Assembly (NCBI GenBank): GCA_008632985.1 | Contig: QPGO01000061.1 | Coordinates: forward strand, 1 to 64,000 | Direction: 5' to 3' | Source: Psammoneis japonica | Taxonomy: Eukaryota | Length of the DNA: 64,000 nucleotides | Shown here: piece after piece, positions 1 through 58,504 of the stretch | Numbering within the stretch: the first letter of the stretch is position 1 | Layout of the letters: every line of letters begins with the position of its first letter | Program-made: the position numbers and the translations under genes | Notes under the pieces: model-generated | What the model was told of the DNA's origin: nothing | Databases searched by the model: none | What the model saw: the letters and a program-made list of their open reading frames with translations, nothing else

Positions 1-1337
1 TGCCATGAAGGACCCTCGGGCTTTTGCAGACACTCTCATGGAGAAACACAAGTTCAAGCTCAAGGGCATTGGACCATTGGAGTTCCATCTTGGTTGCAAC
101 TTCACCCATGATCCAGATGGCACCCTGTGCCTGCTCCCCACAAGCACATTGAGCGCATGGTTGACAACTGCACATGCCTCTTTGGGGAGAAGCCCTGCAC
201 TGACATGCTTTCACCCCTTGACAAGGGTGACCACCCTGAGCTTGACACCTCCGAGTTGCTCAACCGGAGGGCATCCACCAATTTCAATCCTTGATTGGTT
301 CCCTGCAATGGCCGCATCTCTTGGTTGCATTGACATTGCTGTGGCTGTCATGTCCCTGTCTGGCTTCCATGCAGTGCCCCACCAAGGCCACCAGACCGTG
401 CCAAATGCATCTGCGGATTCCCCTCTAAGATGCATCATGGTGCCCTCCAAGTGTGCACAAGGAGCCCGACTGTTTGGACCTTCCCAAGCCTGTGTGTGAC
501 TGGGCCCATCTGTGTGTGGGGGTGGAAGAGCTGCTCCCGCAGATGCACCCNCCAAGCCACTTGGCAAGTTTGTCACCACAACACACTGCATTGATGCACA
601 CTTGTTCCATTGCATGCTTGCATCCTCCATTTCCTCAGTGAGTTTCCAGCTGATTGGTTCTCTAAGAAACAAGCAACAGTCGAGACTGCTGTGTGTGGAT
701 CCGAGCTTGTTGCCGCAAGGACATGCGTTGAGCATGTCATTGATCCACGTGTCCCTTTGTGTCACATTGGTGTCCCCATTTGTGAAACATGTCACATGTT
801 TGGGGACAACGAGTTGGTTGTGGACAGTGCTGCCATCCCACACTCCAAGTTACACAAGCGGCACACTGCCCTCTTGTTCCATTGTGTGTGTGAGGCAATT
901 GCCTCCAGTTTCCTCAAGTTTCATTTTATCAAAGGCTCCCACAACCCAGCTGACATCCTCAGCAAGCATTGGGGCTGCTCCCAAGTCTGGAACCTCTTTT
1001 GTCCTCTAATGTTTTGGAACTTCAATCCCAAGGCTTTCAACCAATCTGACCTTGAATCTGTTGCTGTTGACCCCTCAAGCAAACTGGGGAGTGGCAGGAT
1101 TTGAACAAGATTTTAGTTTGTCACGCACAATTGTGTGTGCTCTTAGTTCCGTGTGCGCCATGCGATGCAGTTTGCTTTCAAGCCACATGGCTCACAAGAA
1201 CAATGACAGCAGTGCCTGCATCAACGACACCAGTCTTTAAGCTCCTGTGATGGTCTCTGTGCAGAGACTCATCTGCTGTCCAGACAGCAGCAAGGAGTCA
1301 TTGTTTTCTTCCACCCAGTCATCTTCATTTTCTGTCA
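1..1337 (+). mobile_element. 3' part of a Ty1/copia (CoDi-like) LTR retrotransposon: RT end, RNase H, PPT, 3' LTR; duplicate of 25768-27110
   Basis: KHKFKLKGIGPLEFHLG and RNase H motifs KQATVETAVCGSE, NPADILSKHW. PPT aaactggggag at 1081-1091, then the LTR. Near-identical to 25768-27110 with the same CTCTG flank. Confidence 0.95.
1092..1337 (+). repeat. 3' LTR (246 bp)
   Basis: TG...CTGTCA termini; aligns with LTRs at 20282, 26865 and (reverse) 8781, 15338. Confidence 0.95.
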
Positions 1338-2061
1338 CTCTGGAGCCTTGTGGTTTGCTTTTGTGACCATGCAACTCAAGAAAGAATGCATGACACACTG
1401 CATTCTGCAAATGAGATGGAGCAAAGGAAAGAATGAGCATGACTGCTCAATCTGCCACATTTTTGTTGGCCTTGTGAGGCTCTGCTTTTGCCTTGGCCTT
1501 AGCTCTGGATGCATCACAGTTTGCAGAATTGATGACAGCATGGCCACAGACAATCCCTTGAGAGCGGTCTCTTGATCCTTGCTGCTGCCCTCAACATGGG
1601 TCACTTTTCCAACATGTGGTCCTCCCAAGACAGGGGTGCACAATGTGGTGTCGACTTTGACAACACCTTCCGTAACTTCAAAAGCGACGATGATTTGACA
1701 ATGCTGGGAAACGCAGGGACAATGTCAGGCAAAAAAGAAAAAATCCATTCTGAGAGTCGATCAAGTGCTGAGCTGAAACCACCGCTGCACAAAAAAGCAC
1801 TTCTTGCGCCGCATGGCATGTCCGTCTGCAATCCGCTGGTTCATCCATGAACCTGGTGAATGGCAGACCCTGCGTTTTAGTTATTCCTGTCTGCCTGTCC
1901 TCATGTTTCGGCGATTGTCAATGGCGATTGTAGCGGGAGGAAGTAAAGATACCTCGCGTACAATGATCCTGAACACCGCAATGCGTTAATGATGCTAAGA
2001 ACAGGCCTTTTTATTGAAAGAAGATAAAAGCTGGGTTCTTTTTGTTTTGAGAGAGCATAGC

Positions 2062-3276
2062 ATGGCTCGTTCAACAAGTCGATTTCATTCCACAAACTTT
2101 CTCATTTTGACGGTCTTATTTGCCCTCCTCGGGTCGTTTTACTTTTCTTGGCGTGCGTGTATCCAGATTGATAAGGAACGAATCCAGCATGGCATTGCTT
2201 TGTTCCATGATGGCCGCATCCATAAGGCTGCTACTGTCTCAAGAAAGTGCGCAACGTGGATTCCTCGTGAGAATCGCAAAGTGCTCTTTGTCGATCTGCC
2301 TACCATGGCGACCTTTCAACATACAAAGGAAAACTTGACAGAGAACCTTCTGTCCTTCAAGACGGGAGAGTTCTACATGTCTGCTGCATGTGATTTTGCG
2401 TTACAATCCAACGGCTTTGTAGTTGACGAAACACGATGGGACGACTTTGAAATCATGAAGCTTGAAGAACTCCAATCCTATCACAGAATTGTGGTTGGCT
2501 GTTTGTATTACAATTGGGATGCTTGCCCATGGGGTAAAAGTGATAGAAAAGGCCTTGCAAAAACAGTGAAGAGACTGGGACCAATTCAATGCAAAATGAG
2601 AGTCTTGTACTGGTGGGAGCACGACGAAAACGAGACACCGCAGTTTCTTGGTCTCGACTTTCTACAGCCGCAACAAATCCTGACGCCATATGCTTTTAAC
2701 AAGAAAAACATTCACCTTGGATATTTCCCTCATGACTTGCTGGATACGAGGAATCACATGTCGGTAGCAGAGCGAGAAAGGACTGGCTTAATACTGGGAA
2801 AAGATGCAGCATTTATCCTGTACGAAGAAACCTTGCAGACCTTGGAGGCATTGCTCGACCACAATTTCACTCTGCACTCCACTTGTCATGACGGCAATTG
2901 TTCCATGTTGCCCAAACGAGTAATCAATCATCCATACTTATCTCCTAAACAGTACGCCGCCTTGACAGAACAAGCGGCGTTTCTCCTTGGAGTTGGGTAC
3001 CCCATTACGTCGCCATCTCCAATCGTGGCCATGAGCCGAGGCGCAGCATTCATAAACCCTATACAAGAGGGTGGAGATTCGCAGCACCCTCCCTTGGCAC
3101 ATCTTGGTCCTCCGTATGTATACAACGTGAATTTGACTGACGCACAAGAGGTATTGCGAGCTGCCGAATCAAGCGTAAAGCACAGATTCTCTTCGTTTGT
3201 GCCTGCTGAATTCCGAGTTGAAAGTACAATCGATAGAGTCTGCGCCATGCTGGAGAACGAGTCGCCATGTTTATGA
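2062..3276 (+). CDS. Glycosyltransferase family 18 (MGAT5/GnT-V-like), type II membrane protein, copy 1
   Basis: Intronless ORF with an N-terminal TM segment. LLGVGYPITSPSPIVAMSRGAAFINP, SQHP...GPPYVYNV, LQPQQ and CKMRVL resemble MGAT5 motifs (GLGFPYEGPAPLEAIANGCAFLNP, SQHPY). ATG at 2062 matches the paralog start at 27838. Confidence 0.8.
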   Translation: MARSTSRFHSTNFLILTVLFALLGSFYFSWRACIQIDKERIQHGIALFHDGRIHKAATVSRKCATWIPRENRKVLFVDLPTMATFQHTKENLTENLLSFKTGEFYMSAACDFALQSNGFVVDETRWDDFEIMKLEELQSYHRIVVGCLYYNWDACPWGKSDRKGLAKTVKRLGPIQCKMRVLYWWEHDENETPQFLGLDFLQPQQILTPYAFNKKNIHLGYFPHDLLDTRNHMSVAERERTGLILGKDAAFILYEETLQTLEALLDHNFTLHSTCHDGNCSMLPKRVINHPYLSPKQYAALTEQAAFLLGVGYPITSPSPIVAMSRGAAFINPIQEGGDSQHPPLAHLGPPYVYNVNLTDAQEVLRAAESSVKHRFSSFVPAEFRVESTIDRVCAMLENESPCL

Positions 3277-4421
3277 AAACCTTCTTTGTGGTCCCAAGGC
3301 ATTATATGTATTGACTATAAGAGCTGGAAGCCGCAAAAAAATCCTCAAGTGTCACAACAATTCAACGCCCTACAGTAATCATCCAACATCTTCTCAGTGG
3401 TGTCAAAAATGTTACGACAGAACAAGATACGAAAATGTATCGGCATTGATTCTGACAAAACGTAAGTAGCCTAACCATTGCTGTTTTTGCTCTCTCAAAT
3501 GGAGGATTCTTGGTAGAAACCTATGTACCGGTATGCATACTCCCTTGTAATATTTGAGATCGGATCTTTTCCATCCTAGTCCTAGAACTGAAAAAGACTC
3601 ACGATGGGGAGTGGCATTGATGCAAAAAGACAAATCATTTCCATTCATTAAATTACGAAACCAGTCATGTCGCCTACGAGCATTGCCTCTGCCTCAATCA
3701 CTCAACCAATGTTGTTGAGTTTCTCTATGCGATCATTGGCCAACTTATTGTAACTGGCGTGTTTGTTGTTCACCCAAATTCCAAGCTGGGATTTTTCGCG
3801 TTATCTATTATTGGAACTCTGCAATCACCATATTCGTACGATGCAATTGGACTGGAAACTTCTCCGCCGAGTGCAACAACAGACTCGCTACTAGAGGTAG
3901 GCACTCTAGATGAGAGGGCGGCCGAGCTGGCAGGTGAATCGATGATGAGATTCGATCGGCGCTCAACTTCCAAATGTGTGGAATAGAGAGCGGAGAAGCT
4001 GTCAGGCATAACTCTCGACACAACTACGTGTTATGGAATGAAGCGATCAAACTATAATATTGATGTGAAAGGGTATTTTACATCATCCTTGGTTCGCCGT
4101 TGACAGCAAACGTCAATGCAATCAAATGAAGCCACTTTCGAGTGGCACATGTATGCTTCGAATGGGAAAAAACCAAAAGCCCAACCACGTAGTCTCAGTT
4201 GTCACAATCCAATGACAACTTACGGTTCCCCCCCACACAACAAAACTATAAAAAATATATGAAACATGCATTGCACAGGGAAGAGTCTTCTTTCTTTCGA
4301 CTCTCGAGAGACCGTTCTCCAAATGCAGATAATGTGTATGCAGAACACGAACAACTCCGCACAGCAACTTACCAATGTTCTGCAAATATGCAATATGCAA
4401 ATGAATGATTCATTGGGCATC

Positions 4422-5943
4422 CTACCAGTATTTTTCAGTGTCGATCTCGAACGCCGCAATGTCTTGGTAGTCAGCCTGCTGAGAGGACGTCGCACCTGTG
4501 AAGCCGACGAAGACGTTTCTGTCGATGTCGAACAAATTATTCAACTCCAGATGGTCTACAAGAATGGGACTTTTAGGCCTGCGTCGATGTTGCTGACGAT
4601 CGTGATAGACACGCAAGGTATATCCATCGTAGGTTATCCAGAGGCCTCCGTAATCGTTATTGTAGGTGCGAACTGTCCTCCTGGGGGTTTCGTCCCGCTC
4701 GATGACGTCTCCATTGGGATTGACGACCTGGAGATGAACGTGATCCCCACTGTCATCATTTCTCGTTGGGGTATGATCTGAGGAAAGAGATCCGAGGTGA
4801 GAACGTCCAAAGAGTGAGGCAGCTGAAGAAGATCAACAAGGAAAAGTTTCCACCATGATACTTACATGTATCTAGCTCAACCACGAGTGCAGGTCTAGGT
4901 CCGTCGTAGACACCAAGATCACCGCCGGAATCGCCAACTGCTGAAGTGCCTGCCCTGTCCTGGTGCAAAGTGAATGTCATTCCAGAGCCTGAATTAGCAT
5001 TAGTACCATACATGCGGTAGACCATTTTCATCGAGAAGGAGAAATCGTCCCAATAACTGGTCAGCGGAAGGAACGCGGAAGAGGCGCGCCAATCTCCCCA
5101 ATCGTCAGGAGTGAGACGTATTGCACAACAGTGCGGGCAAAGCCTGATGGTCTTTGGATAACTTCCATCTCGGTAGTCAGATAAAGTATACCCATTCAGT
5201 TCAAAATCCGGGAGCGTGTTACAATTGCCGTCCCATTCATACGCGTAAATATCTTGGTCTGTGCAGCCACCAGGGTCCGTGAGCGTCACATATCCAGTGC
5301 ACGAATCGGTATGACCACACCTGTTCTCAACAGTGAGAGTAACACGGGTTGTACCAATTTGGTAATAACTCCCGGGCCTCTGAGTTTTCCTTCTTAGAGG
5401 ACGACCTGAGGGGTCGTATGACCCGTCGTCAATCGACACCCTGCGATTGCACGAGGGTGGGCCCCTGGCTTCCATGGTCACATCCTTGCAAAGTGCCACA
5501 GGTCTGCAGCAGCAGGTGGGGCAGCAGTAGGTCCCGTCAGTTCCGCCTTCCGGAACGACACCCTTGGGGTCCTCGCCTTTGGGATCATCGGATGGAGCCT
5601 GTTCTTCCTAGATAAAACGCGAAAAGAGAAACACAGAAAAGCAGTGATTTGAGATGATTCGTAATTGGACCGCACTGCAAAAGCGCTGTGCATCATTGCC
5701 AGACCGTGGAAGCGACTTACCTCGACTGGCAAAGCAGAGTTGTCCTTATCCGTGTCTTTATGGCATCGGTAATTGGATTCGTGTGCGAAATGTGCAGATG
5801 CGAACAGCAATGTGTCAGCAAGAACGAGGGCATGAAATTTACTGAGTCTCCAGATCATGTCAACAGTTGGCATGCGCCGCTTCCTCACCTTGAGCATATG
5901 CAGCAAGGATAAGAGAGGCAATAAGCAAGATATCAAATCGCAT
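4422..5943 (-). CDS. Secreted HYR-like + L-type (legume) lectin-domain protein, 4 exons, copy 1
   Basis: Signal peptide MRFDILLIASLILAAYAQ then a gtgagg donor; further GT-AG introns. HYR-like SIDDGSYDP...GTTRVTLTV. Lectin motifs IRLTP, GGDLGVY, VVELDT, WITYD, VFVGFTGAT. Stop at 4422. Confidence 0.85.
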
Positions 5944-6084
5944 GAGAATCGATCGTTAATGACAATGCAAAGGTAGCTGATTCGTTGTTGTTTGTTTTTT
6001 GACTTTTTTCTTTTTTTGGGAACTCCTTTGTGAATACCGTTTGCAGTGCCTTCCGTGCGTTCTGATGGCTCGTATCGTTTGACC

Positions 6085-6312
6085 GATAGGAAGACGAGAC
6101 CAGGCGATGTGTTAAATGTTCGGGAACATTTAAACGGTGAATGCTAGTTCAAGACATGATGTGCTTAGGGCCTAGACAGAAAGTTTTTATCTATTTGTCG
6201 GCAGCCCCATTAAATAACAACTGTCGGAAATATCATGATAAATGTTCACGAACATTTAGAGTCGCGTTTTTGGCGGCGTCGGTCCTCATGTCCACGCACA
6301 ACATCAGCAGCT
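6085..6312. repeat. Dispersed repeat upstream of the lectin genes containing TAAATGTTCnnGAACATTTA palindromes
   Basis: Palindromes at 6112-6133 and 6239-6258. Homologous blocks at ~32215-32700, ~34480-35060 and ~48550-49150. Confidence 0.75.
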
Positions 6313-7072
6313 CGCATCGGAATGCCAATGGCATTCTCCGTTGCAACTCGTCGCCGCCTGTCGAGGCCGTAGCAGCAGTTGTAATTTTGAAGAAGAGAGC
6401 GACATACACCATTAAAAATGGCTGCTGTCCCTCCTGTGGCTGCCGGAGGTGCCCCCCTGCACCCCCGAAGACGCACCAAGAGAAGTGGATGAGCCAAGGG
6501 GATCATTTGGGAGGAGAGCACACCAACCTCCTCAACCGCTGCCGCACCACGGGACCAGCTCCCACATTAGCCACCACTCTTCTTGAACATGTCATTGACT
6601 CCAGCAACATGGTCCCCAAGGCCTTCTTGGCCTTGGCTCGTCACGGAGCAGGCTGCCAAGTCACGTGTGTGTTCACAGACCCTCTGTGCACATCCGTGAC
6701 CCGGTGGACACGTCCCCTTGGGACAGACGAATCTTCTGTTTTCACAGAGACATTTTACCTAGCAATTTTTTAAACATTCTGGAGTCCCCGACCACACCCT
6801 TTGTTGTTGTGGGACCTCAGGTGGCGCCGATCGCACCTGACATGGCGGCCTCGGAAGGAGTTTTGTTGGACGATCACGACCTCATCCTGCCTCAGACAGA
6901 TGGCACTCCTGACACGGAAACCATCCAGGTGTGCCGGCTGGTCCAGGTGCCGCATGCCTGTCTGCACCTGGTTCTTGGTTGAGACTTGCGCCTCTTCAGG
7001 CATGGCGGGAGCTTGGGAGCGCCATCCAGAACGACGGCCGCATGGGAGACTTTGTCCTCTGCTTGACTGGTT

Positions 7073-8296: not shown

Positions 8297-8780
8297 GAAC
8301 ACCTTCCCAACCCACAAGATGGGGGTGTGCCAGCACCGGCACCCACACCGGCGGCCACCTGCTGAAGACCCGGGCCGGCCAGTCCCAGTGCTGGCCTGCA
8401 GCCTGCCTCTGCCAACTTGCAGCAAGGCCCATGTCAGCAGCACCCCCGCAGTGATGAGCCAGGCAAATTAGCAAAGGAACAGGTCAATCTCTCACACCAG
8501 TTGGGCTGGCCCCAGTTCATCACACACTTGCGTGGGGAACCTTGCATGGTGGAGAATGCAGGTCAGCCACCCCATCCAGCTGCCGAGCCACCACAAAGTC
8601 TCCATGACAACAGAGCACCTGCCCAGTTCACCACCCCCAACTGGATGCCAGCCCAGATCCGGATGACCACCGACCGCGGCAGCCATTCATCCACACGCGA
8701 GCACCTGGGCTTCTTCGAGGCTGACATGGCGGACATGATCCACAAGCGCTGCTGGACTGTCCTGCCACACAACAAGGTCG

Positions 8781-9025
8781 TGACAGAAAATGAAGATGAC
8801 TGGGTGGAAGAAAACAATGGCTCCTTGCTGCTGTCTAAATGGCAGATGAGTCTCCATGCAGAGACCGTTGCAGGAGCCGAAAGACTGGTGTCATGATGTC
8901 GGTGCCACTGTTGCCATTCTTGTGAGCCGTGTGGCTCGAGAGCAAACTACATCGCGCGACGCGCGTGGAACTAAGAGCACACACAATTGTGTGTGACAAA
9001 CTAAAATCTTGTTCAAATCTTGTCA
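8781..9025 (-). repeat. 3' LTR of copia A
   Basis: Direct repeat of 15338-15581, adjacent to the PPT. Confidence 0.95.
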
Positions 9026-12000
9026 CTCCCCAGTTTGCTTGAGGGGTCAACAGCGATAGATTCGAAGTCGGATTGGCTGCAAGCCTCGGGATCGAAGTTC
9101 CAAAACATTAGAGGACGAAGGAGGTTCCAGATTTGGGAGTGACCCCAATGCTTGCTGAGGATGTCAGCCGGGTTGCAGGAGCCTTCGATAAAATGAAACT
9201 CAAGGAAACCGGAGGCAATCGCCTCACGTACACGATGGAACAAGAGGGCGGTGTGTTGCTTGTGTGACTTGGAGTGCGGGATGGTGGCACTGTCCACAAC
9301 CAACTTGTTGTCCCCAAACATGTGACATGTTTCACGAATGCGAACGCCAAGGTGACGCAAAGTGATGCGCAAATCAATGATCTGCTCAACGCATGTCCTT
9401 GTGGCAACAAACTCGGATCCACACGCAGCAGTCTCGACTGTTGCTTGTTTCTTGGAGAACCAATCAGCCGGAAACTCATTGAGGAAATGGAGGATGCCGG
9501 TGACAGAGCGTCCAGTGAGCATGCAATGGAACAAGTTCGCATCAACGCAGTGTGTGGTGGTGATGAACTTGCCAAGCAGCTCGGGTGCGTCTTGCGGGAG
9601 CAGCTCTTCTGCCTCCCACACAAAGATTGAGCCCAGTCACACATGGGCTTGGGGAGGTCCGAACAGTTGGGCTCCTTGGTGCGCACTCGGAGGGTGCCAT
9701 GACGCATCTTGGAGAGGAATCCGCAGATGCATTTGGCACGGAGTGGGTGGCCTTGACGGGGCGCTGCACGGAAGCTGGACAGGGACATGACAGCCGCAGC
9801 AATGTCAATGTGACCCAAAGATGCGGCCCATTGCAGGGATCCAATCAAGGATTGGAGTTGGTGGATGCCATCCGGTTTGAGCAATTTGGAGGTGTCGAGC
9901 TCTGGGTGGTCACCCTTGTCAAGGGGTGAAAGCACATCAGTGCAGGGCTTCTCCCCAAAGAGGCATGCGTGGTTGTCAACCATGCACTCAATGCACTTGC
10001 AGGGAGCAAGGCACAGGGTGCCATCTGGGTCGCGGGTGAAGTTGCAGCCAAGATGGAACTCCAATGGTCCAGTGCCCTTGAGCTTGAACTTGTGCTTCTC
10101 CATGAGGGTGTCTGCAAAAGCCTGGGGGTCCTTCATGGCGAAGGCCAGGTCGTCCACATGCACTGCCACATGTTCGCAGTGGTCACCATTCCTGCGCAGC
10201 CAGATGTCGGGTTCGGCTTTGCATGGAAAGAAGCCTTCGGCACGCAAGCAATCGGCAAAGCGTTCATGCCATCTGAGGCCAGAGCTGTGGAGTCCATACA
10301 AGGCCTTGTGGATGACAAGGATGTGTCCTTCCAGGTCGCCGAACTCGGGGCCTGCCATGATGTACAGTTTCTCCTTGGCCACAGCTTCAAGGCAGGCGTT
10401 CCCAATGTCAGTGGCCCAGGTCATTAGTTCATTGAGTTCAGCCAGGAAGATCATCATTCGCAGGCCACAGAGAGACACCACTCCGGAACAGACACTGTTG
10501 ACGGGCACGTCTGTGAGGTGTCCATTGGCAACAAGCCTTGCTTTGTGCCGTCCGTCATGTTTGACGTCACAGATGAGATGCACCTGGATCTTCTTGTGTC
10601 CCAACGGAGCACTGGAATCCTTGTGGTGTCCGCAGTCATGGAAGACTTCGCACTCATCAAGCTGAGTCATCTCGAGGTCCGTTGCATCTCCCCACTTGTG
10701 GTTGCCGTTGCGCTCATCAAGGGTCATGGCATGCTTGCAGTCCCGTGGCACTTCATGCCCGCACTTGCATTGTGGCGCAGTGCAAAAGGAGCGTAACTTG
10801 GCTTGGTTGGCCATGCGGAATGGCTTCTTCTGACGAAGTGCTGTCTTGCAAAAACATCTCCATCCTTTGGTTTCTAGAAGGCCGTGCTCACGCGCATGGA
10901 TGGCACAGGTGATGGGGTTGTCCTTGGCAATGATGGCAAGAGGTTCGGACGTGATCTCCCCATTCTCCCATTCAAGCATGACGTTGTAGCTTGAGCCTTT
11001 CCATGAGGGATCATGGGGTCGCAATGGTCCTTCGAGCGATGCGATGCGTCAGAACTTCCAGAGAGTGGTGTCCTCGTCTTCTTGCTCAATGTGGTGCATG
11101 ATGTCATTGCAGGCTGGGACTTCCTCGCATTCGTCATTGTTGACAGAGCAGATGAACTTGACCAGTTCAGGATTGCCTCCAATTTTTCAGTCGTGGTCCT
11201 CAACGGCTTTGATGATGTGGGCTCTGTGGTGTTGTCCATCCTCTTGTGGCTTCATGAGGAAGGTGCGTCCCATGACATCTTCGGGGTCAAAGACCGGCAT
11301 TTTGGGCATCCTGATCGCCTCCCCATCTGGTGAATCTGGCAAATCCTTGGAGTCGTGGCGGGATTTAATGACAGGGTCAGCAGATTTCTCATCAGGAGGA
11401 TCAAGACGCAGGTTTGGAGCAGACGGGTCACGGGCGGAGCGCATGTTGTAATGGCAGAGAATCTTCTGAGTGTTGTCAGAAAGAATCTTGAACGTCATTT
11501 GGTGACCAACGTGTTCGGCGATGCCAACGAAGTGACCACGTAATTCACGGGATTCGGATGGCCAGTCAGAATCATCCAGGTGGCAGCACACGGGTTCCCA
11601 CCATTGAAAGCAGAGGAGCGGGCTGATGTCGGGAGCAGAGCCGGACAGCACCTTGGTGGAGGTGCACCAGTGGAGCTTGGCGGACGCCGTGTGGTTGAGC
11701 ACAAAACACATGCACATCAGGGCGAGCAGCCAGGTGCAAGCTGGGGACCCGAAGCGATCCATGACAGTGTCAGCCATGGTCTTCACAGTTTGGCAGCGGT
11801 GTTCAGCGAAATTCTGATGCTGGTGGTGAGGCTCGCTTTGCCAACTGGAGATGAAGATGGCACGAAGGATGCCAAGAACCTTGTTGCTGATCTCAACCTG
11901 AGCACGGTCGCTGATGAGCTTGGACGGGGCACCGCAGTTGCGAATGTTGTCTTTGAGGGTGTTGACAAATTCTTTGTCAGTTTTGGTGCCATGCACGTCA

Positions 12001-14552
12001 GTGATGAGAGATTCTGTGCCGACAAAGAGCTGGGCGCTGGTGCAACCAGAGTCAATGGCAGGGGTGTCAGAGTGGACTGTGTCGGTGGCAACGGGTTCAT
12101 CACGTCGGTGGACATTGAGAGCCGGGTTGGGCGATTTGTGCGCCTTTTTCAGGTGCGTGCTGGCATGTGGGCGCACTGCATCGTGCAATCAAAAGTGCGG
12201 CGGACAGTGTCCTTTGGGAGAAAGCCAAAGCAGGGGCGGAGGGACTCAATGTCGGGATCCTTGGGATTGAGTTTGCGCTCATGGCATTCGCAGAAGAAAA
12301 AATCCGATGTCGGGAGCAGGTGATCATCAAGGACGGAGTCTGCAAGCATGGCATTGTTGATGACATGGGGGTGACGACAGTTGCCGAACTCATCAAAGAG
12401 GTTGGCAGTCGGGTCGTCTTGGAGGTCAGACACGGCATCATGCCATGTCTCATCGTCCATGAACTGGTGGTCAAGGACAGATGGATCCCATGGGTGTCCC
12501 ATTCGGCGTCGGTGTGCGGGCGCATGGCGATGTGTGGAAGGCCGGCTTCAATGTTGATGGGAATGATGCATCCATCAATGGTGGTGATGCGCTGCAGACC
12601 ATTGGGGACCTTGATGGACCGATCGTTAACATCGTGTTTGCACCACTCAAGCTGGCCGCAAGAGTGCATCGTCTTCCCCTTTCCAGTGTGGGCATGCTGG
12701 TGAAGGATGGCAATGGCAGGGCCGCGTTGCATGTGGATGACACCACCGGCAGCGACAATGGGGATGACACCTTGGACGTCAACCTGGCAACCAGTGTGGG
12801 CAATGACACAAACATCATCACCGGCGATGCCACTGTTTGCACCACGATCCACAAGAGCACCTTTGTGAGTTGACTTGTGGGTCAAGGCAGAGTAGACGAC
12901 ATTGTGGTTGTTGACGCGACGGTGTTTATGACCGTTGATCTCAATGTCAGTGTCAGTGGGCTTCGCGTCGGAGCGGGCGGAAGGTGCAGATCCGGACGGT
13001 TTCTTGCCAGAATGGGTGGAAGGGGCCATTCAGGTGCCAGGAGACATTGCAAGTTGCCGAGTGGCAGGGGCTTGCACCTGGTGAGATGAGCCAGAATGGG
13101 GCCAGCATTGGCTGCATCGGCTGTGGCGTCAGATGGTGTGAGGTCCGATGCAAGGTCATGGGTGTTGGCGGACAAGTTGATGTTGCTGTCGCTGCCAAGA
13201 CGGAGGTCGTGTAGGTTGACCATCGTCGAGTCATGGCAGTTGCCGGTGTGGGCATTGTGTGAGCCAAGAATGATGGCCTTGGTGGACTGGGGCAAGGTGT
13301 CCCAAATGCACTGATGGTCCGGCAGAATGCGACGCCATTGTTCCCTGGTGAGGAAGTTGCCACAGGTCTGTGCAGCACAAGCTTGGATGACGTCAACATC
13401 ACTGTCGATGTCGAAGAATGCATCATCGTCAGGGTCGTCGGGAACCAGGTCATGTTCGTAGATGGCATGGCGTGGAGCGCAAGGAGTGGTCTTGGGGGTG
13501 AACGTGCTGTCGTGCTGTGCTGCAGCAGAAAGCAGAATTCCACAGTGCTCTTCGCAAGAGAGACCCTTTCCATTCTGCATGCGGAACTGATCAGCTTGAT
13601 TCTTTGCCAAACGGAGTTCTTCGACAGGATGAACGGTGTTCTCAAGCATGGCACATTTCTGGCCAGCAGAGAAATGGTCCGCACCCGGGACAAGAGCTTT
13701 GTGCTTGCAAAGCTGGTCCTGCCAGTGAAGTGTGAAGGCATGAGTGGATCCTTTCCAGGTGCCATCACTAAGGCGAGCAGTGGTGAGGTGCGTGAGAAGG
13801 GTCGAGGACTCCAGGGATGCACGGGTGGAAGCAAGGGTGCACTTGGAGAGGTCACTACAGACCGCTTGAGCATCAGAGGAGCCGACATGTTGACGAACAA
13901 GTGCCTTGCCTTTGTCATTCTGCAAGATCCGTTCAAACACTGTGAACATTTGCTTCTGTTGTTCATCAAAGAGGGCCTTGTCCTCAGCTGTGGAGGGCTT
14001 GTACGTCGGGTCGAGAATGTGTGCGACATCTTGGGAGCGGGCCTGTGCGATGACGGAGGTGTGCCACGTGTGCCACTGTTTGTCAGACTTGGGAACCGCA
14101 AAGGTGAGTGGGTCACGTTTGATGCCTTGTTTAAAGTCACGTGCGGGATCACTTGGTTTGGGTGGCATCGAGCCAGGAGTGGGAGCAGATGGTGCTGCAC
14201 CCATGGAGAGGGATGCCACATGCTCAGGACTAAGACCACAGTTGGTGAACTCCTCTTGTGTGAATGATTGTGGGTCATTGCTGACATCCGCGCCGCCGCG
14301 CACTTTTGCCATGTGCAGGCTAATCAACGCAGCTGTCTGTGCTTTGTAACCACATGGCAAAGGCATTTGATTGGCGCCGTCGTTGCACACAAGGGCATCC
14401 AATTGCATCGGAGTAAAAGTGAAAAGGTCTTGATGCAAATCGGTTCCATCAATGTTGAGGGCGGAGCGCAATGGATTGTCTGCGGCTTGATTCAGAACAG
14501 TGCCTAGAATGTGCTCGAGGCCATCGATTTGCTGTTGCCTGGTGAGAACCAT
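9013..14552 (-). pseudogene. gag-pol of copia A (frameshifted, hypermutated)
   Basis: gag FKQGIKRD; protease LVDRGANSG; integrase ATDTVHSDTPA, SEPHHQHQN; RT DVKHDGRHKARLVA, KALYGL, AVHVDDL; RNase H NPADILSKHW. Confidence 0.93.
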
Positions 14553-15337
14553 GTTGCAACTGGGTGGGTGTCGGAGCCAGCTGGAAGCAGAGTGTGGGGG
14601 CTTGAAACAACTTGAAACTTGACTTGAATCTTGACTTGATGTCTTGAACTGTCTTAAGAGTCAGAAGCCGCCGGGCCATAACATCCCGTTCACAGTCAAG
14701 TGCCAAGCTTCCTGTCCGGTCCACAGAGTTGTGCCTGCACGTCCGAACCCCCGCAGCTGGCGACGCTTTGGGTTGCTGACAAGCTGGCTAGAGGTGGACA
14801 ACACCTCTGAACCATTCTTATTTTGTGTCGGTTGGATGACCCGATCAGGCCGGCCAAATTTGGCGCTGTGGAGGGACGAACAAACGTGGGAAATCATGCA
14901 CCCTCACCCCAACACAGGCTGCAACCACAAACTGCTTCCTCTCACAGTTGTCCTCATGGACCTTGTAGGACTGTAGAAGACCAGCAATCCGGTGTAGATG
15001 TGAGGCGGTAGACTTGGCGTGCGTGGAGCAGAGCCAGAGTCAGGGATTTATGTCGTGTGCGCGTGGACGCGTGCGGATGCATTGGTGGGATCCGCTGCAA
15101 GGAATCCGGAATCTCGGATGTCTGAGAATTCGGGAATTCCTGGCCAAACAAACATCCGTTGAATAAACATATCCAACGATTGGAGGTGTCGGATAAATCC
15201 AAACGTGTAGATTTAATCCAGCATCCAGCAGTGAAGAAGGTAGACACATGCTTCCACCGCCAACGGTGCGCGTCGTCGAAAATTTCTCGATGACGATGAT
15301 GAATGCTCAGTGGACAACAAAGAGCAAGACTGTAATC

Positions 15338-15581
15338 TGACAGAAAATGAAGACAACTGGGTGGAAGAAAACAATGACTCCTTGCTGCTGTCTAAACAGC
15401 AGATGAGTCTCCGTGCAGAGACCGTTGCAGGAGCCGAAAGACTGGTGTCGTGACATCGGTGCACTGTTGTCATTCTTGTGAGCCGTGTGGCTCGAGAGCA
15501 AACTACATCGCGCAACGCGCATGGAACTGAGAGCACACACAATCATGTGTGACAAACTAAAATCTTGTTCAAATCCTGTCA
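15338..15581 (-). repeat. 5' LTR of copia A
   Basis: Direct repeat of 8781-9025. Confidence 0.95.
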
Positions 15582-18425: not shown

Positions 18426-20281
18426 TCAAGGTGGCAGCAAAATGTCACATCTTTCTACAGAGGATCACACAGGGCTGCACAAATTAGATGCCAGAGGTTG
18501 TGTGGAAAAAGTGCAAAATTACCGCACTCATCTGCAACCAAAGCCAGTGATGAAATTTCCATTTGTCACACATTGAGTCCTGCAAGAATTCTTGAACAGG
18601 ATTTTCCCAGGACTCATGCCAAAACTGAGCTTGGTTTGGTTTTGCTGTGAGATTCCCCAAAAATTCCCTGGGATTGCCACCTTTTGCCATGATTTTCCAC
18701 GGGAAGAATGATTTCCCGGGGAATCACCACGAATCGTGCTTCATCACATGCATGGTGCACCTGTGAATAAAAAATTGCATGTTGGGAGTTCCCCGTGCTT
18801 CCCTCTCACACATTTCTGCACCTTCCACATGCCGGGATGCAGGAGCCAGACAACAATCAACCAACCACAACAAAAATGGGCAACACGCCATGGTGCACTT
18901 GCACCCCATTTATGATGGCTTTTGTCTGTCAATCATGACACCGTTCAATGCATTTGATGACATCGATTGAATGGGATCTACAGAATGAAACACAAGATGA
19001 AATGTGGTTGCTCATGTGCAGAATGCCAGTGCAATTGAGTTGTCAGTCGTCAGTTGTTCTTTTGTCATGCAGTCCAAAATGTGAGCCACAAGGTGCACAG
19101 CAAAGGCCAAGGCAAAAGCAGAGCCATGCATGGCTGACAATGACAACATGTCAGATTGAACAGTCTCCTTCATTCTTCCAATTGACACATCTTGTGTGCA
19201 GAACAAAGGGGATCGTTCAGATCACTCTTGTGTTGCAGTCACAAATGCAAGCCATGAGGCATCTGGAGTGAAGGACAAGGCAAAGTTGGAACTTCACATC
19301 ACTGACAAAAACATGGTGGATTGATTGATGATGTCATTCTTCCCTTTGACCCATCTCACATGCAGAATGCAGTGGATCTTTTTTTCCTTCTTGTGGTGTG
19401 TGGCCCCAAATGCAAACAACATGTGCTCTTGAGCAAAGGCTGGGGCACAAATGGAGCCGCATGTGAGCATTGTCAACACGCATGATTTAATGGCAAAGTT
19501 CATTTTTCCCTTGCTCTGCCATGAGGGGCCACTTTGTGTCAATTTGTCAATGCATCCATCATGGTCGTCACCCGGCTGAATGAAAATGAGAGAAAGGCAC
19601 ACCGGCCTGACCCAAATCAAGTGGGAATTGCTGCAATGCACTCATTTTTTGTTCCCCTCCCTGAGCCCTTTTGGTCATTCCTTCCCACCAAATTGCCCCC
19701 TCATTCCCTGGGAATTCCCCAAAAGGGTGAGGCAATTCCCCCTTGCCCTTGCCATTTTGGGGAATCCCCAAATGGGCAAAACCAAACTAAGAAACTGAGC
19801 TTGACTTGCAGACAATGGATGATGATGATGCCCCTTCACAAGACCCAGGAAATCATGCATCGTCAAAAGACCATCAAGAGTGGATCTGGGTTGATGCAGT
19901 CAGACTCAGTTTGGTTTCACCCATTTGGGGATTCCTCAAAATGGCCAAGGCAAGGGGGAGTTGCCTTGCCCTTTTGGGGAAAACCCAGGAAATGAGGGCA
20001 CTTTTGTGGGAAGGAACGCCTGAAAGGGCTCAGGGGAGGGGAACAAAAACGAATGGCATGCAGCAATGTGCCGCAATCACAGTCAGGCAGGTGAGCTTTT
20101 ATCCTCATGACGACCAAGCAAGTGATGCAATGTGGCAACATGCTGATGAGACATGGTGCACGACACATTGACACAAAGCAGCCCCTTGTGACAGAGCAAG
20201 GAAAGAAGAAACTTTGCCATTGAATCTGCCATGTCAATGTTGCTCATGCACGGTTCTGTTTTTGCCTTGTCCTTTGCTCTG

Positions 20282-20527
20282 TGACAGGATTTGAACAAGA
20301 TTTTAGTTTGTCACACACAATCATGTGTGCTCTTAGTTCCACGCGCGCTGTGCGACGCAGTTTGCTTTTGAGCCACATGGCTCACAAGAACAACAACAGC
20401 AGCACCGACATCAACGACACCAGTCTTTTGGCTCCTGTGACGGTCTCTGCATGGAGACTCATCTGCTGTTTAGACAGCAGCAAGGAGTCATTGTTTTCTT
20501 CCACCCAGTCATCTTCATTTTCTGTCA
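20282..20527 (+). repeat. 5' LTR of copia B
   Basis: TGACAG...CTGTCA; direct repeat of 26865-27110. Confidence 0.95.
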
Positions 20528-21360
20528 GATTGACACTCTTGCTCATTCTCATCCATTGAGCGGTCATCACTGTCATCAAGAAAAATTTGACTGCACGCAC
20601 CGTTGGTGGTGGAAGCACACACCTGCCTTCTTTGCTGCTGGATGCTGGATTAAATCCATGTGTTTGGATTCATCCAACACCTCCCATCATTGGACATGTT
20701 TGTTCAACGGATGTTTGTTTGGTCAGGAATTCCCAAATTTTCAGACATCCAAGATTCCGGATTCCCTGCAGCAGATTCTACCCTGGTTGGCAGACAGATC
20801 AATCCATCCGCTTGCGTTCACGCGCACACGACATGATCCCTTGACTCTGGCACTGTTCCACGCATGCCAAGTCTGCTGCCTCATGTCTGCACTGGATTGC
20901 TGGTCTTCCACAGTTCTGCAAGGTCCACGAGAATGACTGTGAGAGGAAGCAGTTCATGATCACAGCCTGCATTGGGGCGAGGGTGCATTTCCCACACAAT
21001 TTGTTCGTCCCTCCACAGTGCCAAATTTGGCCAGCCTGATCAGGTTGTCCAACCAATGTAAAACAAGAATGGTTTGGAGGTGTTGTCCACCTCCAGATGG
21101 CTTGTCAGCAGGGTTTTTTAACCCGTTGCTCCGCTCTCAGGCAACCCAAAGTGCCAGCAGCTGCGGGTTCGGACGTGCCGGCACAACTCCATGGACCGGA
21201 CAGGAAGCTCAGCATTTAACTACGAATGGGACAGCAAAACGCTGCGGCTTCTGATTTGCAAGACAGTTCAAGACTTCAAGTCAAGACTCAAGTCAAGTTT
21301 TAAGTCATCTCAGGCTCACCCTCCGACTCTGGCCAGTCCCGACACCCACCTGGTTGCAAC

Positions 21361-24300
21361 ATGGTTCTCACCAGGCAGCAACAGATCAATGGCCTCAAGC
21401 ACATTCTAGGCACTGTTCTCCATCAAGCCGCAGACAGTCCATTGCACTCTGCCCTCAACATTGACAGAACTGATTTGCATCAGGATCTCTTCACTTTTGC
21501 TCCAATGCAAATGGGTTCCCTGGTTTGTGACGATGGCACCAATCAAATGCCCTCACCACGTGGTTACAAAGCACAGATGACTGCGCTGATTAGTCTGTGC
21601 ATGGCAAAGCAATGACCCTCACTTGTTCACATGTGAGGATTTCACTGACTGTCATCACAGTCCTGAGCATGTGGCGTCCCTCTCCATGGGCACAGCACCA
21701 TCTGCTCCCACTCCTGGCTTGTTGCCACCCAAAACACATGACCCCAGGTGTGACTTTAAACAAGGCATCAAATGTGACCCACTTGCCTTCGTGACTCTCT
21801 GGTTCAACAAACAGTGGCACACATGGCACACCTCCATCATTGCACAGGCCTGCTCCCAGGACGTCGACCGCATTCTTGATCCAATGTACAAGCTCTCTAC
21901 AGCTGAGGACAAGGCCCTGTTTGACAAACAACAGAAGTGCATGTTCACTGTGTTCGAATGCATCTTGCAGAATGACAAAGGCAAGGCAACTATTTGTGAA
22001 CATGTTGGCTCCTCTGATGCTCAAGCAGTGCATCGTGACCTGTCCAAGTGCGCCCTTGCATCTGCTCATGCATCCCTGGAGTCCTCAACCCTTCTCATGC
22101 ACCTCACCACTGCTTGCCTCAGTGATGGCACCTGGAAGGGATCCACTCATGCCTTCATGCTTCACTGGCAGGACCAGCTTTGCAAGTGTGAAGCTCTTGT
22201 CCTGGGTGCGTGGACCACTTCTCTGCTGGCCAGAAACGTGTCATGCTTGAGAACGTCGTTCATCCCATCGAAGAACTCTGTTGGCAAAGAATCAGGCCAA
22301 TCAGTTCCGCACGCAGAATGGCAGCAGCCTGTCTTACGAGCAGCACTGTGGACTCCTGCTTTCTGCAGCGGCACAGTGCAACAGTGCGTTCACCCCCAAG
22401 ACAGCTCCTCGCACTCCACGCCGCGCCATCTACGAACATGACCTGGCCCCCGACGATCCTGATGATGAATTGTTCTTCAACATCAACAGTGATGTTAATG
22501 TCATCCAAGCCCATGCTGTGCAGACTCGTGGCAACTCCCTCACCAGGGAACAATGGCATTGCATTCTGCCGGACCATCAGCGCACTTGGGACACCTTGCC
22601 TCAGTCCACCAAGGCCATCATTCTTGGCTCGCGCACTGCCCACACTGGCAACTGCCATGACTTGATGGCAGTCAACCTGCATGACCTTTGTCTTGGCAGC
22701 AACAGCAATGTCAACTTGTCCGCCAAAGCTCATGATCTTGCATCAGCCCTTGCACCATCCGATGCTGCAGCCGATGCAGCCAATGCTGACCCCTTTCTGG
22801 CTCATCTCACCAGGCGCAAGCCTTTGCCACCCGGCAACTTGCAACATCTCCTGGCACCTGAATGGCCCCCTTCCACCCGCTCTGGCAAGAAACCCCCCAG
22901 ATCTGTGCCTTCCATCCACTCCAACAAGAAATCCAACAGATCTGTGTCTTTCCACACTTGAGCTCAATGGTCATAAACACCATCGTGACAATGACCACAA
23001 TGTTGTCTGCTCTGCCTTGACCCACAAATCGACTTGCAAAGGCACTCTTGTGGATCGTGGTGCAAACGGTGGTGTTGCCGGTGATGATGTTTGTGCAATT
23101 GCCCACACTGGTTGCCAGGTTGACATTCAAGGTGTCAATGATCACCAGCTTGTCGACATTCCCATCGTCACAGCCGGCGGTGTCATCCACATGCAGCACG
23201 GACCTGTCATTGCCATTCTTCACCAGCACGCCTGCACTGGAAAAGAGAAGACCATGCACTTGCGGCCAGCTTGAGTGGTGGAAACACGATGTCAATGATT
23301 GGTCCATCAAGGTCCCCAACAGTCTGCAGCGCATCACCACCATTGATGGATGCATCATTCCCATCGACATCAAAGCCGGCCTTCTGCACATCGCCATGCA
23401 CCCGTGCACTGATGCTGAATGGGACAGCCTGCCGCAGGTCGTTCTCACTGGTGATGACACATGGGATCCATCTGTCCTTGACCACCAGTTCATCAATGAT
23501 GAGCAGTGGCATGATGCCATGTCTGACCTCCAAGACGACACAACTGCCAACCTCTTTGATGAGTTTGGCAACTGTCACCACCAACATGTCGTCAACAATG
23601 CCATGCTCACAGACTCCGTCCTTGATGACCACCTGTGCTCCCGACGTCTGATTTTTTCCACAAATGCCATGAACACGAGATCAATCCAAAAGATCCCAAT
23701 TTTGAGTCTCTGCACCCTTGTTTTGGCTTTCTCTCAAAAGACACTGTTTGCCATGCTTTTGATTGCATGATGCAGTGCGCCCGCATGCCAGCCAGCATGC
23801 ACCTGAAAAAGGTGCACAAGTCACCCAACCTTGCTCTCAATGTCCACCAACATGATGAGTCCATTGCCACTGACACGGTGCACTCCGACACCCCTGCCAT
23901 TGACTCTGGATGCACCGGCGCCCAGCTCTTTGTCGGCACAGAATCTCTTGTCATGGATGTGTGCAGAACCAAAACTGACAAGGAATTCATCAACATGCTT
24001 GAAGACAACATTTGCAATTGTGGTGCCCCGTCCAAGCTCATCAGCAACCGTGCTCAAGTTGAGATCAGCAACAAGGTTCTTGGCATCCTTTGTGCCCTCT
24101 TCATCTCGAGTTGGCAAAGCAAGCTTCACCAACAGCATCAGAATTTTTCTGAACACCACCACCAAACTGTGAAGACCATGGCCAACACCATCATGGATTG
24201 CTTCGGGTCTCCGGCTCACACCTGGCTGCTTGCCCTGATGTGCATGTGCTTTGTGCTCAACCACATGGCATCTGCCAACCTCCACTGGCATGCCCTCACC

Positions 24301-26877
24301 AAGGTGCTTTCTGGCTCTGCTCCCAACATCAACCCACTCCTTCATTTTCAATGGTGGGAACCCGTGTGCTGTCACCTGGATGATTCCGACTGGCCGTCCG
24401 AATCAAGTGAGTTACATGGTTGCTTTGTTGGCATTGCCAAACATGTGGGTCATCAGATGACATTCAAGATTCTTTCTGACAACACTCAGAAGATTCTCCA
24501 CCGCTCAAAAGTGCGTTCCACCCGTGATCCGTCTGCTCCAAACCTGTGTCTTGATCCTCCTGACAACATGTCTGCCAAACCCATCATCAAATCCCTTCAC
24601 GACTCTGGGGATTCACCGGATTCACCAGATGGGGAGGCAATCAGGATGCCCAAAATGCCAGTTTTTGACCCCAAGGATGTCATTTGATGCACCTTCCTCA
24701 TGAAGCCACAGGAGGACGGACAACACCACAGAGCTCGTGTCGTCAAAGCCTTTGAGGACAATGACTGGAAAATTGGAGACAACCCTGAACCAGTCAAGTT
24801 CATTTGCTTTGTCAACAATGATGGGTGTGAGGAAGTCCCAGCCCACAATGACATCATGCACCACATCAAGCAAGAAGACGAGAACACTGCCCTCTGGAAG
24901 TTCCAGTGCATCATCTCACATGAAGGACCATTGCAACCCCATGATCCCTCTTGGAAAGGCTCAAGTTACAACGTCATGCTTGAGTGGGACAATGGGGAGA
25001 TCCCGTCCAAACCCCATGCCATCATTGCCAAGGATGATCCCATCACCTGTGCCATCTGTGCACATGAGCATGGCCTCATTGAAACCGAAGGATGATGGAG
25101 ATGTTTTTGCAAGACAGCTCTGCATCAGAAGAAGCCATTCTGCATGGCCAGTCAAGCCAAGTTACACTCCTTTTGCACTGCACCACGGTGCAAGCACGGG
25201 TGTGAAGTGCCCCAGGACTGCAAGCATGCCTTGGCCCTTGATGAGTGCAAAAGCAACCGCAAGTGGGGAGATGCAATGGACCTCAAGATGACTCAGCTTG
25301 ATGAGTGCAAGGTCTTCCACGACTGCAGACATTGCAAGGATTCCAGCGCTCCATCAGGACACAAGAAGATCCAGGTGCATCTCATCTGCGATGTCAAACA
25401 TGACAGACGGCACAAAGCAAGGCTTGTTGCCAATGGACACCTCACAGACGTGCCTGTCAAAACAGTGTCTGTTCAACAAACTAGAGACTTGGGCCACCAA
25501 CATTGGGAATGCATGTCTCAAAGCTGCAACCAAGGAGAAACTGTGCATCACAGCAGGCCCCAAGTTTGGCAAGCTGGAAGGACACATCCTTGTCATCCAC
25601 AAGGCCTTGTGCGGACTCCACAGCTCTGGCCTCAGATGGCATGAACGCTTTGCCGATTGCTTGCGTGCAGAAAGTTTCTTCCTGTGCAAAGCCGAACCCA
25701 ACATCTGGCTGCACAGGAATGGTGACCACTGCAAATGCATGGCAGTGCATGTGGACAACCTGGCCTTTGCCATGAAGGACCCTCAGGCTTTTGCAGACAC
25801 TCTCATGGAGAAACACAAGTTCAAGCTCAAGGGCATTGGACCATTGGAGTTCCATCTTGGTTGCAACTTCACCCATGATCCAGATGGCACCCTGTGCCTT
25901 GCTCCCCACAAGCACATTGAGCGCATGGTTGACAACTGCACATGCCTCTTTGGGGAGAAGCCCTGCACTGACATGCTTTCACCCCTTGACAAGGGTGACC
26001 ACCCTGAGCTTGACACCTCCGAGTTGCTCAAACCGGAGGGCATCCACCAATTTCAATCCTTGATTGGTTCCCTGCAATGGGCCGCATCTCTTGGTTGCAT
26101 TGACATTGCTGTGGCTGTCATGTCCCTGTCTGGCTTCCATGCAGTGCCCCACCAAGGCCACCCAGACCGTGCCAAATGCATCTGCGGATTCCCCTCTAAG
26201 ATGCATCATGGTGCCCTCCAAGTGTGCACCAAGGAGCCCGACTGTTTGGACCTTCCCAAGCCTGTGTGTGACTGGGCCCAATCTGTGTGTGGGGAGGTGG
26301 AAGAGCTGCTCCCGCAAGATGCACCCAAGCCACTTGGCAAGTTTGTCACCACAACACACTGCATTGATGCACACTTGTTCCATTGCATGCTTGCATCCTC
26401 CATTTCCTCAGTGAGTTTCCAGCTGATTGGTTCTCTGAGAAACAAGCAACAGTCGAGACTGCTGTGTGTGGATCCGAGCTTGTTGCCGCAAGGACATGCG
26501 TTGAGCATGTCATTGATCCACGTGTCCCTTTGTGTCACATTGGTGTCCCCATTTGTGAAACATGTCACATGTTTGGGGACAACAAGTTGGTTGTGGACAG
26601 TGCTGCCATCCCACACTCCAAGTTACACAAGCGGCACACTGCCCTCTTGTTCCATTGTGTGTGTGAGGCAATTGCCTCCAGTTTCCTCAAGTTTCATTTC
26701 ATCAAAGGCTCCCACAACCCAGCTGACATCCTCAGCAAGCATTGGGGCTGCTCCCAAGTCTGGAACCTCTTTTGTCCTCTAATGTTTTGGAACTTCAATC
26801 CCAAGGCTTTCAACCAATCTGACCTTGAATCTGTTGCTGTTGACCCCTCAAGCAAACTGGGGAGTGGCAGGATTTGA
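21361..26877 (+). pseudogene. gag-pol of copia B (stops, frameshifts, heavily hypermutated)
   Basis: Starts MVLTRQQQI as in copy A; LVDRGANGG, ATDTVHSDTPA, DVKHDRRHKARLVA, AVHVDNL, NPADILSKHW. Confidence 0.93.
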
Positions 26878-58478: not shown

Positions 58479-58504
58479 TTAAGAAGTTGGAGAGAGGAGA
58501 GTGC

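Follow-up and report, generated by a model that had tools for sequence, protein, structure and literature searches.

Repeat-induced point mutation (RIP), known from Neurospora and other ascomycetes, inactivates mobile DNA after its integration by dense transitions at one dinucleotide and leaves compositional domains beside normal genes. It makes TpA out of CpA, has thresholds of about 0.4-1 kb in length and about 80% identity, depends on an enzyme of the RID/DNMT4 type and acts before meiosis. In methylated transposons the deamination of 5-methylcytosine turns CG into TG or CA, and ADAR editing fixed by retrotransposition leaves the same edits in both long terminal repeats (LTRs), with A changed to G on the sense strand only. 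For the chlorarachniophyte Bigelowiella natans, the sections of a 2026 preprint used here describe mutation-accumulation lines in which A:T to G:C hypermutation, restricted to TpA, affected an integrated giant-virus region (single-copy and silent) and a virophage region, in some lines only (Mettrop et al., bioRxiv 10.64898/2026.01.13.699255). The same sections report ongoing de novo TpA mutation at about 1000 times background in some lines and an enrichment of reverse transcriptase and DDE domains among TpA-depleted coding sequences, and propose an ADAT2-like candidate enzyme with RNA or epigenetic guidance (bioRxiv 10.64898/2026.01.13.699255). Here we describe a stretch of 64,000 nucleotides from the diatom Psammoneis japonica (NCBI GenBank assembly GCA_008632985.1, contig QPGO01000061.1, positions 1 to 64,000 of the forward strand; the whole stretch is called the window), in which long domains have been almost cleared of TpA (TA below) while islands holding duplicated GT18 and lectin genes have not. 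We propose, with a probability of about 0.58, a DNA-level process that converts TpA to TpG or CpA after integration and is confined to domains that are defined by position, probably silenced, and seeded by mobile or foreign DNA.

Judged by its pattern, the TpA hypermutation of B. natans appears to be the closest known case. As far as those sections of the preprint go, there too only TpA is affected and becomes TpG or CpA, discrete regions (foreign or silent ones in B. natans) are hit while the rest of the genome is normal, and the main target is single copy, matching a single-copy erased stretch in the present window. Unlike in B. natans, where the process was watched live, only a fossil footprint is available here; the erasure is near complete, with observed/expected ratios (o/e) for TA of 0.02-0.09 vs. 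0.45 in the virus region of B. natans, and a nested CpG decay accompanies it. The same sections contain no treatment of border sharpness, of the sparing of gene duplicates or of position dependence within one repeat family. Among classical systems RIP comes nearest in logic, but it fails on direction and on the duplication trigger: here TpA is removed and CpA/TpG enriched, and duplication does not suffice (lectins, GT18 and three copies of a repeat are spared) and apparently is not needed either (DNA in single copy is erased). Diatom transposons are reported to be CG-methylated in the part of the literature cited here (PMC9998398), and CG has indeed gone to TG or CA in the same domains. Such decay leaves the TA loss unexplained, and the CG loss is itself uneven, both between domains (o/e 0.20-0.48) and between two Copia elements. 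Unlike ADAR edits fixed by retrotransposition, the LTR pairs are discordant at 4 and 7 TG/CA sites. Among the entries listed, the literature searched on diatom transposable elements (TEs), hypermutation, RIP and TA depletion contained no published description of TpA erasure in diatoms, and the SPLASH paper that came up employs these terms with other meanings; what is new here is the single-copy erased DNA, the erased fourth copy of a repeat within an erased domain, and a CG loss that fades at the edges where TA loss is a step.

The 64-kb window was divided by a two-state segmentation on T followed by A. This gave six TA-erased domains alternating with six normal islands, as follows (domains carry no strand).

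1-1877: erased domain at the window start, TA o/e 0.09; Copia 3' part (1-1338, plus sense) and 540 bp of another repeat, 99% identical to 25768-27651
1878-6413: normal island A (GT18-A and lectin A), TA o/e 0.59, CG o/e 0.92
6419-27651: erased domain containing both full Copia elements, TA o/e 0.09, CG o/e 0.48
27652-32637: normal island B (GT18-B, 27838-29049, plus strand; lectin B, minus strand), from segmentation, gene matches and the depth of a GT18 contig
32642-45334: erased domain of unrecognised origin, TA o/e 0.06, CG o/e 0.20; single-copy contig depth for pieces at 32.6-38.3 kb
45336-49031: normal island C (lectin C, minus strand), from segmentation and profile matches
49066-55428: erased domain, its first ~90 bp homologous to segments left normal in islands A and B
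55430-57038: normal island
57047-58448: small erased block of 1.4 kb, from segmentation
58454-60390: normal island with a BMT5-like methyltransferase gene (58825-59716, plus strand), from segmentation and Pfam
60395-62091: small erased block of 1.7 kb, from segmentation
62094-63982: normal island

Summed, the erased domains comprise 45,265 bp with 191 TA (TG and CA o/e 1.6-1.85; TA and CG o/e as above), and the normal islands 18,653 bp with 797 TA (TA o/e 0.46-0.70, CG o/e 0.82-0.98). The alternation goes down to blocks of 1.4-1.9 kb and the borders are step-like: the 2-lnL support intervals of the 11 borders span 44-173 bp, as finely as the density of TA can resolve them. All 11 composition borders named in the original prediction, which had been made from the sequence alone, were recovered within about 100 bp of the segmentation change points. 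On the normal side, TA o/e is 0.52-0.64 in each class of distance from the border, and no leakage of TA loss onto that side is visible by this measure within the window. On the erased side it is 0.00-0.07 in all distance classes, the first 100 bp being TA-free in part by construction of the segmentation.

Both families of gene duplicates keep normal TA, CG and Tyr, just as had been observed before. Besides the domain ratios given above, Tyr makes up 3.5-3.7% of the GT18 proteins and 4.2-5.7% of the lectins, vs. 0.2-0.6% in the two Copia pol open reading frames (ORFs), in which Cys amounts to 5.6-5.8% and His to 5.3-5.4%. The lectin genes are the following.

4425-5607, minus strand: lectin A, in two ORF blocks (4759-5607 and 4425-4832); Lectin_legB at 29.1 bits, cut-off 26.3
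30587-31739, minus strand: lectin B, paralog of lectin A
46924-48130, minus strand: lectin C, paralog of lectin A; unit at 46290-48718

The earlier view that these three are paralogs is borne out by exon-1 proteins that are 70-76% identical. Pairwise, the lectin units show 82-84% identity over 2.3-2.7 kb, with transitions about as frequent as transversions and a transversion distance of 7.7-9.2%; Lectin_legB exceeds the gathering score in two of the three, and matches to L-type lectin and HYR domains are weak. By the transversion clock (7.7-9.2% vs. 2.3%) the lectin paralogs are older than the Copia copies described below. Their dS values are 0.19-0.70, and a dN/dS of 0.60-0.96 argues that they are weakly constrained.

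With the three copies used to polarise changes by lineage, TA was found to have become TG or CA at 14 of 237 lineage-sites, vs. 80 of 1350 for A:T transitions in AA, AT and TT contexts (Fisher p = 1.0). In the non-ORF flanks of the units the corresponding figures are 10/132 for TA loss and 43/828 for A:T transitions in other contexts (p = 0.30), so that the neutral sites of these duplicated genes show no excess of TA to TG/CA change. Each lectin lineage has kept 67-69 of 79 ancestral TA, vs. 3 of 38 conserved Tyr codons kept in the Copia elements (p = 6e-22). We therefore regard the lectin paralogs as the real test of a duplication trigger, one in which TA has been lost at the ordinary A:T transition rate only. 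A fourth, erased lectin or GT18 gene body was not found in the window by tblastn at E up to 1.

A repeat of about 450 bp stands at the right end of each lectin island (A 6050-6320, B 32210-32731, C 48620-49154), and one further copy lies elsewhere.

34483-35056, plus strand: copy D of the island-end repeat, within an erased domain and itself erased, as seen at TA columns vs. the normal copies

At the 38 columns with TA in a normal-side copy, copy D has TA at 4, TG or CA at 21, CG at 2 and something else at 11. The control between normal copies gave TA 34, TG/CA 18 and other 28, so the ratio of TA to TG/CA is 4:21 vs. 34:18 (Fisher p = 6.6e-5). In addition, a segment that is normal in A (about 6239-6260) and in B (about 32500-32520) is erased in C, from 49066 on; the border therefore cuts the repeat family at different homologous points. 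One TA site of A and B reads CG in copy D (column 512; 34742-34775 vs. 32500 and 6239). If that column is aligned right, both bases of one TpA would have changed, and the eraser would make an occasional new CpG.

As to copy number, read-set contigs of run X1 cover 32092-34814 (bridging the 32640 border), 34848-35785 and 35855-38324 at depths of 56.7, 59.3 and 57.4, like those of unique genes, and 6, 0 and 4 of their letters, respectively, deviate from the assembly. In the read set, about 5.7 kb of erased DNA has no second copy today at a likeness of 90% or more. The contigs also confirm the erased sequence in a second data set, which may come from the same sample. Of the nine differences listed between assembly and contigs in the single-copy erased part, seven interconvert TA or CG with TG or CA (p about 0.03 by hand, unpolarised and suggestive only), and only two are TA vs. 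TG/CA. Because the lectin paralogs, flanks included, lose TA at background rate, because the erased DNA at 32.6-38.3 kb sits at single-copy depth today, and because the ~450-bp family is spared in three islands and erased as copy D within an erased domain, it looks as if duplication is neither sufficient nor necessary for erasure and position decides.

Outside the Copia copies, erased DNA gives few clues to its origin. The Pfam searches, which took in 49 ORFs of 180 aa or more and 125 of 90-179 aa, detected only RVT_2 of the Copia copies in erased DNA; one sub-threshold MASE2 match was taken as chance. A TE hallmark is present only in the three Copia copies. A 358-aa ORF at 43346-44419 (plus strand) is, by a rough estimate, far beyond chance length even with TGA as the sole common stop; no relative of it was found by a word-indexed search or by whole-library HMMER (0 matches; 1.84 billion representative proteins). 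A second ORF (34915-35715, 267 aa) has atlas scores of 0.80, at noise level.

The two full Copia elements allow erasure to be followed on dated DNA.

8780-15581, minus strand: Copia copy 1; LTRs 8781-9025 and 15338-15581, RVT_2 E 2e-22
20281-27110, plus strand: Copia copy 2; LTRs 20281-20527 and 26864-27110, RVT_2; inside another repeat of about five copies

Compared with each other, the two elements show 965 differences in 6698 sites, namely 808 transitions and 157 transversions (transversion distance 2.3%), and 136 discordant TG/CA dinucleotides, vs. 4-9 in lectin pairs. Taken alone, such discordance was rejected as proof of independent TA loss, since ancestral CG gives the same pattern, and a test on conserved Tyr was used instead, comprising 21 columns with at least 80% Tyr among 40 metagenome Copia homologs. 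One copy has Cys and the other His in 7 of these columns; both have Cys in 8 and both His in 2, Tyr is kept by both in 1 and stands against Cys in 1, and the last 2 carry other residues. The 7 discordant among 17 columns compare with about 7.6 of 17 predicted under independent loss. Conserved TAY codons are now TGY or CAY in 17 of 19 informative columns of copy 1 and 18 of 19 of copy 2, and the control columns are largely kept (conserved Cys 5/5, His 17/19, Trp 12/12). Between the LTRs of one element there are 16 and 27 differing sites, of which 16 and 25 are transitions, with TG/CA discordances at the 4 and 7 sites mentioned above and 0-0.8% transversions. TG and CA outcomes are interspersed on one strand (70 runs vs. 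69 expected). The conserved-Tyr outcomes and the LTR-pair differences thus indicate that the erasure of Copia was a DNA-level process, acting after integration, independently on each copy and to about 90% completeness. The summed contig depth over the Copia region is 2,900-42,800 vs. about 57 for unique DNA, i.e. 50-750 times unique depth.

Two further observations concern these elements. Read in the sense strand (9091-11984, minus; 23971-26799, plus), the Tyr codons have gone to TGY and CAY at 11:6 in copy 1 and 13:5 in copy 2; TGY being about twice as frequent as CAY hints at a mild strand bias of the eraser. Read-set contigs join 20276 to 27111 with a 5-base overlap at a depth of about 285. 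Because they bridge the insertion at this depth, copy 2 lies, with a probable 5-bp target duplication, inside the repeat of about five copies, the other copies of which are without the insertion.

The GT18 pair, in islands A and B, is the young duplicate of the window.

2062-3273, plus strand: GT18-A, 404 aa from the first ATG, PF15024 E 3.6e-26; ATG 184 bp from the border; dS 0.038 vs. GT18-B

PF15024 matches the ORFs 1999-3273 and 27802-29049 (E 4e-26 and 1e-26). The family assignment is based on Pfam and the atlas; a word-indexed search returned no GT18 relatives at E 1e-5. Counted from the ATGs at 2062 and 27838, the two genes differ by 22 substitutions in 1212 bp, with 96.5% protein identity over 404 aa and a dN/dS of 0.73. 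They had been described as near-identical 1.2-kb duplicates, of which the near-identity holds and the size does not: they belong to a segmental duplication that spans at least 6.2 kb from the window edge. Positions 1-3571 match 25768-29362, including the 1877 bp of erased DNA, and 3591-6204 match 29750-32330 at 80.5%. The near-identical erased part consists of a Copia 3' end and the 540 bp of another repeat, with the same TG/CA outcomes in both copies; in all, the erased 1877 bp differ from the twin copy by 8 substitutions, 3 of which adjoin the N at 551, and by 9 small indel events. Since the 99%-identical part carries 1.9 kb of already erased DNA, the near-identity of the GT18 genes is younger than the erasure of the DNA duplicated alongside them, and the caveat attached to the original prediction, that a very recent duplication could contribute, applies to GT18 in full.

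The differences in the GT18 region form a mosaic: 2014-2201 contains 15 differing positions (13 substitutions and a 2-bp indel) and 2202-3176 has 6 substitutions, with further differences past 3177. Such a pattern resembles the outcome of gene conversion in an older duplicate. A read-set contig over 27894-28982 has a depth of 106 vs. 52-59 for unique DNA, and the two copies are therefore real. Copia copy 1, whose LTRs show 0 transversions at 244 sites and only 3 differences outside the erasure or CpG type, is on these counts of similar age to the GT18 pair yet is fully erased, so that the sparing of GT18 counts a little.

Several minor features of the duplication may be added. Between 1-560 and 25768-26330 there are eight small indel events, mostly single bases in short one-letter runs; together with the only N in the window, at position 551, they look like residual long-read assembly noise near the start of the window and contig. 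The contig of depth 106 over GT18-B has five letters unlike copy B at 28167-28245, which are also unlike copy A; a second haplotype or an additional copy may be their source. A (CT)n microsatellite at 29266-29287 in copy B exceeds its counterpart in copy A (3486) by about 19 bases, at the point where the duplicate ceases to be near-identical. Fresh mutation in the erased part of the young duplicate was considered and not accepted: four of five clean substitutions interconvert TA or CG with TG or CA, vs. an estimated expectation of about 40% (p about 0.09 by hand, not significant).

The loss of CG follows a different course from that of TA. On the erased side CG o/e is 0.78 within 100 bp of the border, 0.52 at 100-200, 0.49 at 200-400, 0.31 at 400-800 and 0.34 beyond 800 bp, and 10 of 11 outer 300-bp edges have a CG o/e above that of their own interior. 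Edge values are 0.40-1.19 vs. 0.08-0.48 in the interiors (e.g. 32642-32941, 45035-45334, 49066-49365, 55129-55428 and 58149-58448). Between the Copia elements, 140 sites pair CG with TG and 139 pair CG with CA, and among conserved Arg columns there are 12 in which Arg survives in copy 1 but has become Cys or His in copy 2. These figures show CG loss to be a separate and uneven process: TA loss is a step, and CpG decay is graded over the outer ~300 bp.

The window shows a conversion of TpA to TpG or CpA, i.e. A:T to G:C at TpA, on DNA already integrated. Erased domains are erased throughout to at least 90%, whether they hold high-copy Copia, presently single-copy DNA or a stray copy of a sequence that is intact elsewhere; gene islands are left alone, duplicated or not, and neither present copy number nor sequence family makes a difference. 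A slower, graded CpG decay is nested within the TA-erased domains and leaves the second of two separate footprints. On the reading we prefer, in which position selects the target, the GT18 and lectin duplicates escape by lying outside the marked domains, not by being unique or young. The positional mark could be chromatin-like (silent chromatin) or RNA-guided and would be seeded by mobile or foreign DNA; it may recruit a DNA adenine deaminase, as proposed for B. natans, and islands with active genes would be insulated from it. That the domains are silenced is what we infer. Targeting by chromatin state or TE identity, rather than by homology alone, had been suggested before. The part "not by homology alone" now stands on stronger evidence (the lectins, the single-copy erased DNA and copy D), and TE identity yields to position, which appears to fit better because only the three Copia copies have a TE hallmark and about 27 kb of erased DNA is unmatched. 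We further consider it possible, and put it forward tentatively, that the eraser reads a positional mark with near-nucleotide edges other than CpG methylation, given that CpG decay weakens in the outer ~300 bp whereas TA loss continues to the very edge. Such an eraser would be indifferent to copy number and family; it might be part of a mark-guided A-to-G DNA editing defence common to diatoms and chlorarachniophytes, which could be old within SAR (stramenopiles, alveolates and Rhizaria), and gene islands, duplicated ones included, would be actively insulated.

Several points weigh against selection by position. The clearest targets of erasure in the window are repeats, namely a very high-copy Copia family, and the GT18 pair is weak evidence on targeting at best, as judged from its history. 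Copy D aligns with A, B and C at no more than about 70% identity, across short tandem repeats within the unit, which makes any one column uncertain, although not the aggregate. For ~27 kb of erased DNA no match was obtained with Pfam, sequence or profile searches. When it was erased, this DNA may have existed in several copies, a state that could be hidden because independent erasure alone drops copies below 90% likeness. The trigger might instead be homology, in a RIP-like process with demands that the gene duplicates do not satisfy, such as high copy number, identity well above 85%, or activity at rare sexual phases only, GT18 being too young and the lectins too diverged. The Copia family stands at 50-750 times unique depth, the lectin paralogs had by the transversion clock already diverged to about 85% identity before the dated Copia copies arrived, the GT18 genes became near-identical after the co-duplicated DNA had been erased, and diatoms have DNMT4 enzymes related to fungal RID, the function of which is given as not known in the part of the source used here (PMC9998398). 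Yet at 32.6-38.3 kb the erased DNA has no second copy at a likeness of 90% or more, the four-copy ~450-bp family is spared three times and erased once by position with a border that cuts the unit at different points, and the lectin paralogs, once identical duplicates of more than 2.4 kb, bear no trace of erasure; in B. natans, too, the target is single copy according to the sections cited (bioRxiv 10.64898/2026.01.13.699255). We consider such a trigger unlikely, but the most serious of the competitors.

Purifying selection might instead have removed hypermutated alleles of the duplicates, so that only untouched alleles are seen. Long ORFs are kept in all five gene copies, and if erasure is regional and all-or-none, linked non-coding flanks would be protected together with the gene. 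Against this, constraint is weak (dN/dS 0.60-0.96 in the lectins, 0.73 in GT18), two or three redundant copies should tolerate the loss of one, the non-ORF flanks show background TA loss only, and erased DNA comes up to 184 bp from the GT18 start codon with no graded damage; selection is thereby weakened to a somewhat less probable explanation than a homology trigger. Far less probable is editing before integration, ADAR-like on element RNA or by deamination of cDNA, with the sharp borders being element ends. ADAR enzymes prefer U before the edited A, as stated in the cited sections of the preprint (bioRxiv 10.64898/2026.01.13.699255), and the twofold excess of TGY over CAY in the sense strand would fit. 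This is contradicted by the LTRs: identical at integration, the two of each element today show mainly TG/CA discordances and sites with TA or CG in one and TG or CA in the other; moreover, TG and CA outcomes both occur on one strand, randomly mixed, and neither copy D nor the erased DNA around the elements is a retroelement body. Least probable of all, by a narrow step, is an artefact of assembly or base calling, in which modified bases of silent DNA are misread as G or C in the long-read assembly. Nine small indel events in the first 1.9 kb vs. its twin and the N do suggest long-read noise, but the X1 contigs reproduce 6.1 kb across the 32640 border and in erased DNA with 10 differing letters (a second data set, not a second strain), and strand-symmetric misreading should create CG, which is depleted.

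Should position or a mark, and not homology, direct the eraser, its defence logic would be unlike that of RIP and nearer to an editing that is guided to silenced DNA. The range of a process published to date for a single chlorarachniophyte would be extended to a second, ecologically major algal group. The window contains its natural controls side by side: gene duplicates both old and young, LTR pairs with a date, erased DNA at single-copy depth, and a repeat family that occurs to either side of a border. Both enzyme and guide can be sought at borders that are sharp to less than 200 bp, where TA loss and CpG decay diverge.

No convincing terminal repeats or target-site duplications were seen around the erased blocks at 57047-58448 and 60395-62091. 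The 1.9-kb normal island that lies between these 1.4- and 1.7-kb blocks holds a gene for a BMT5-like rRNA methyltransferase (PF10354), which is present as two ORF blocks on the plus strand at 58825-59716.

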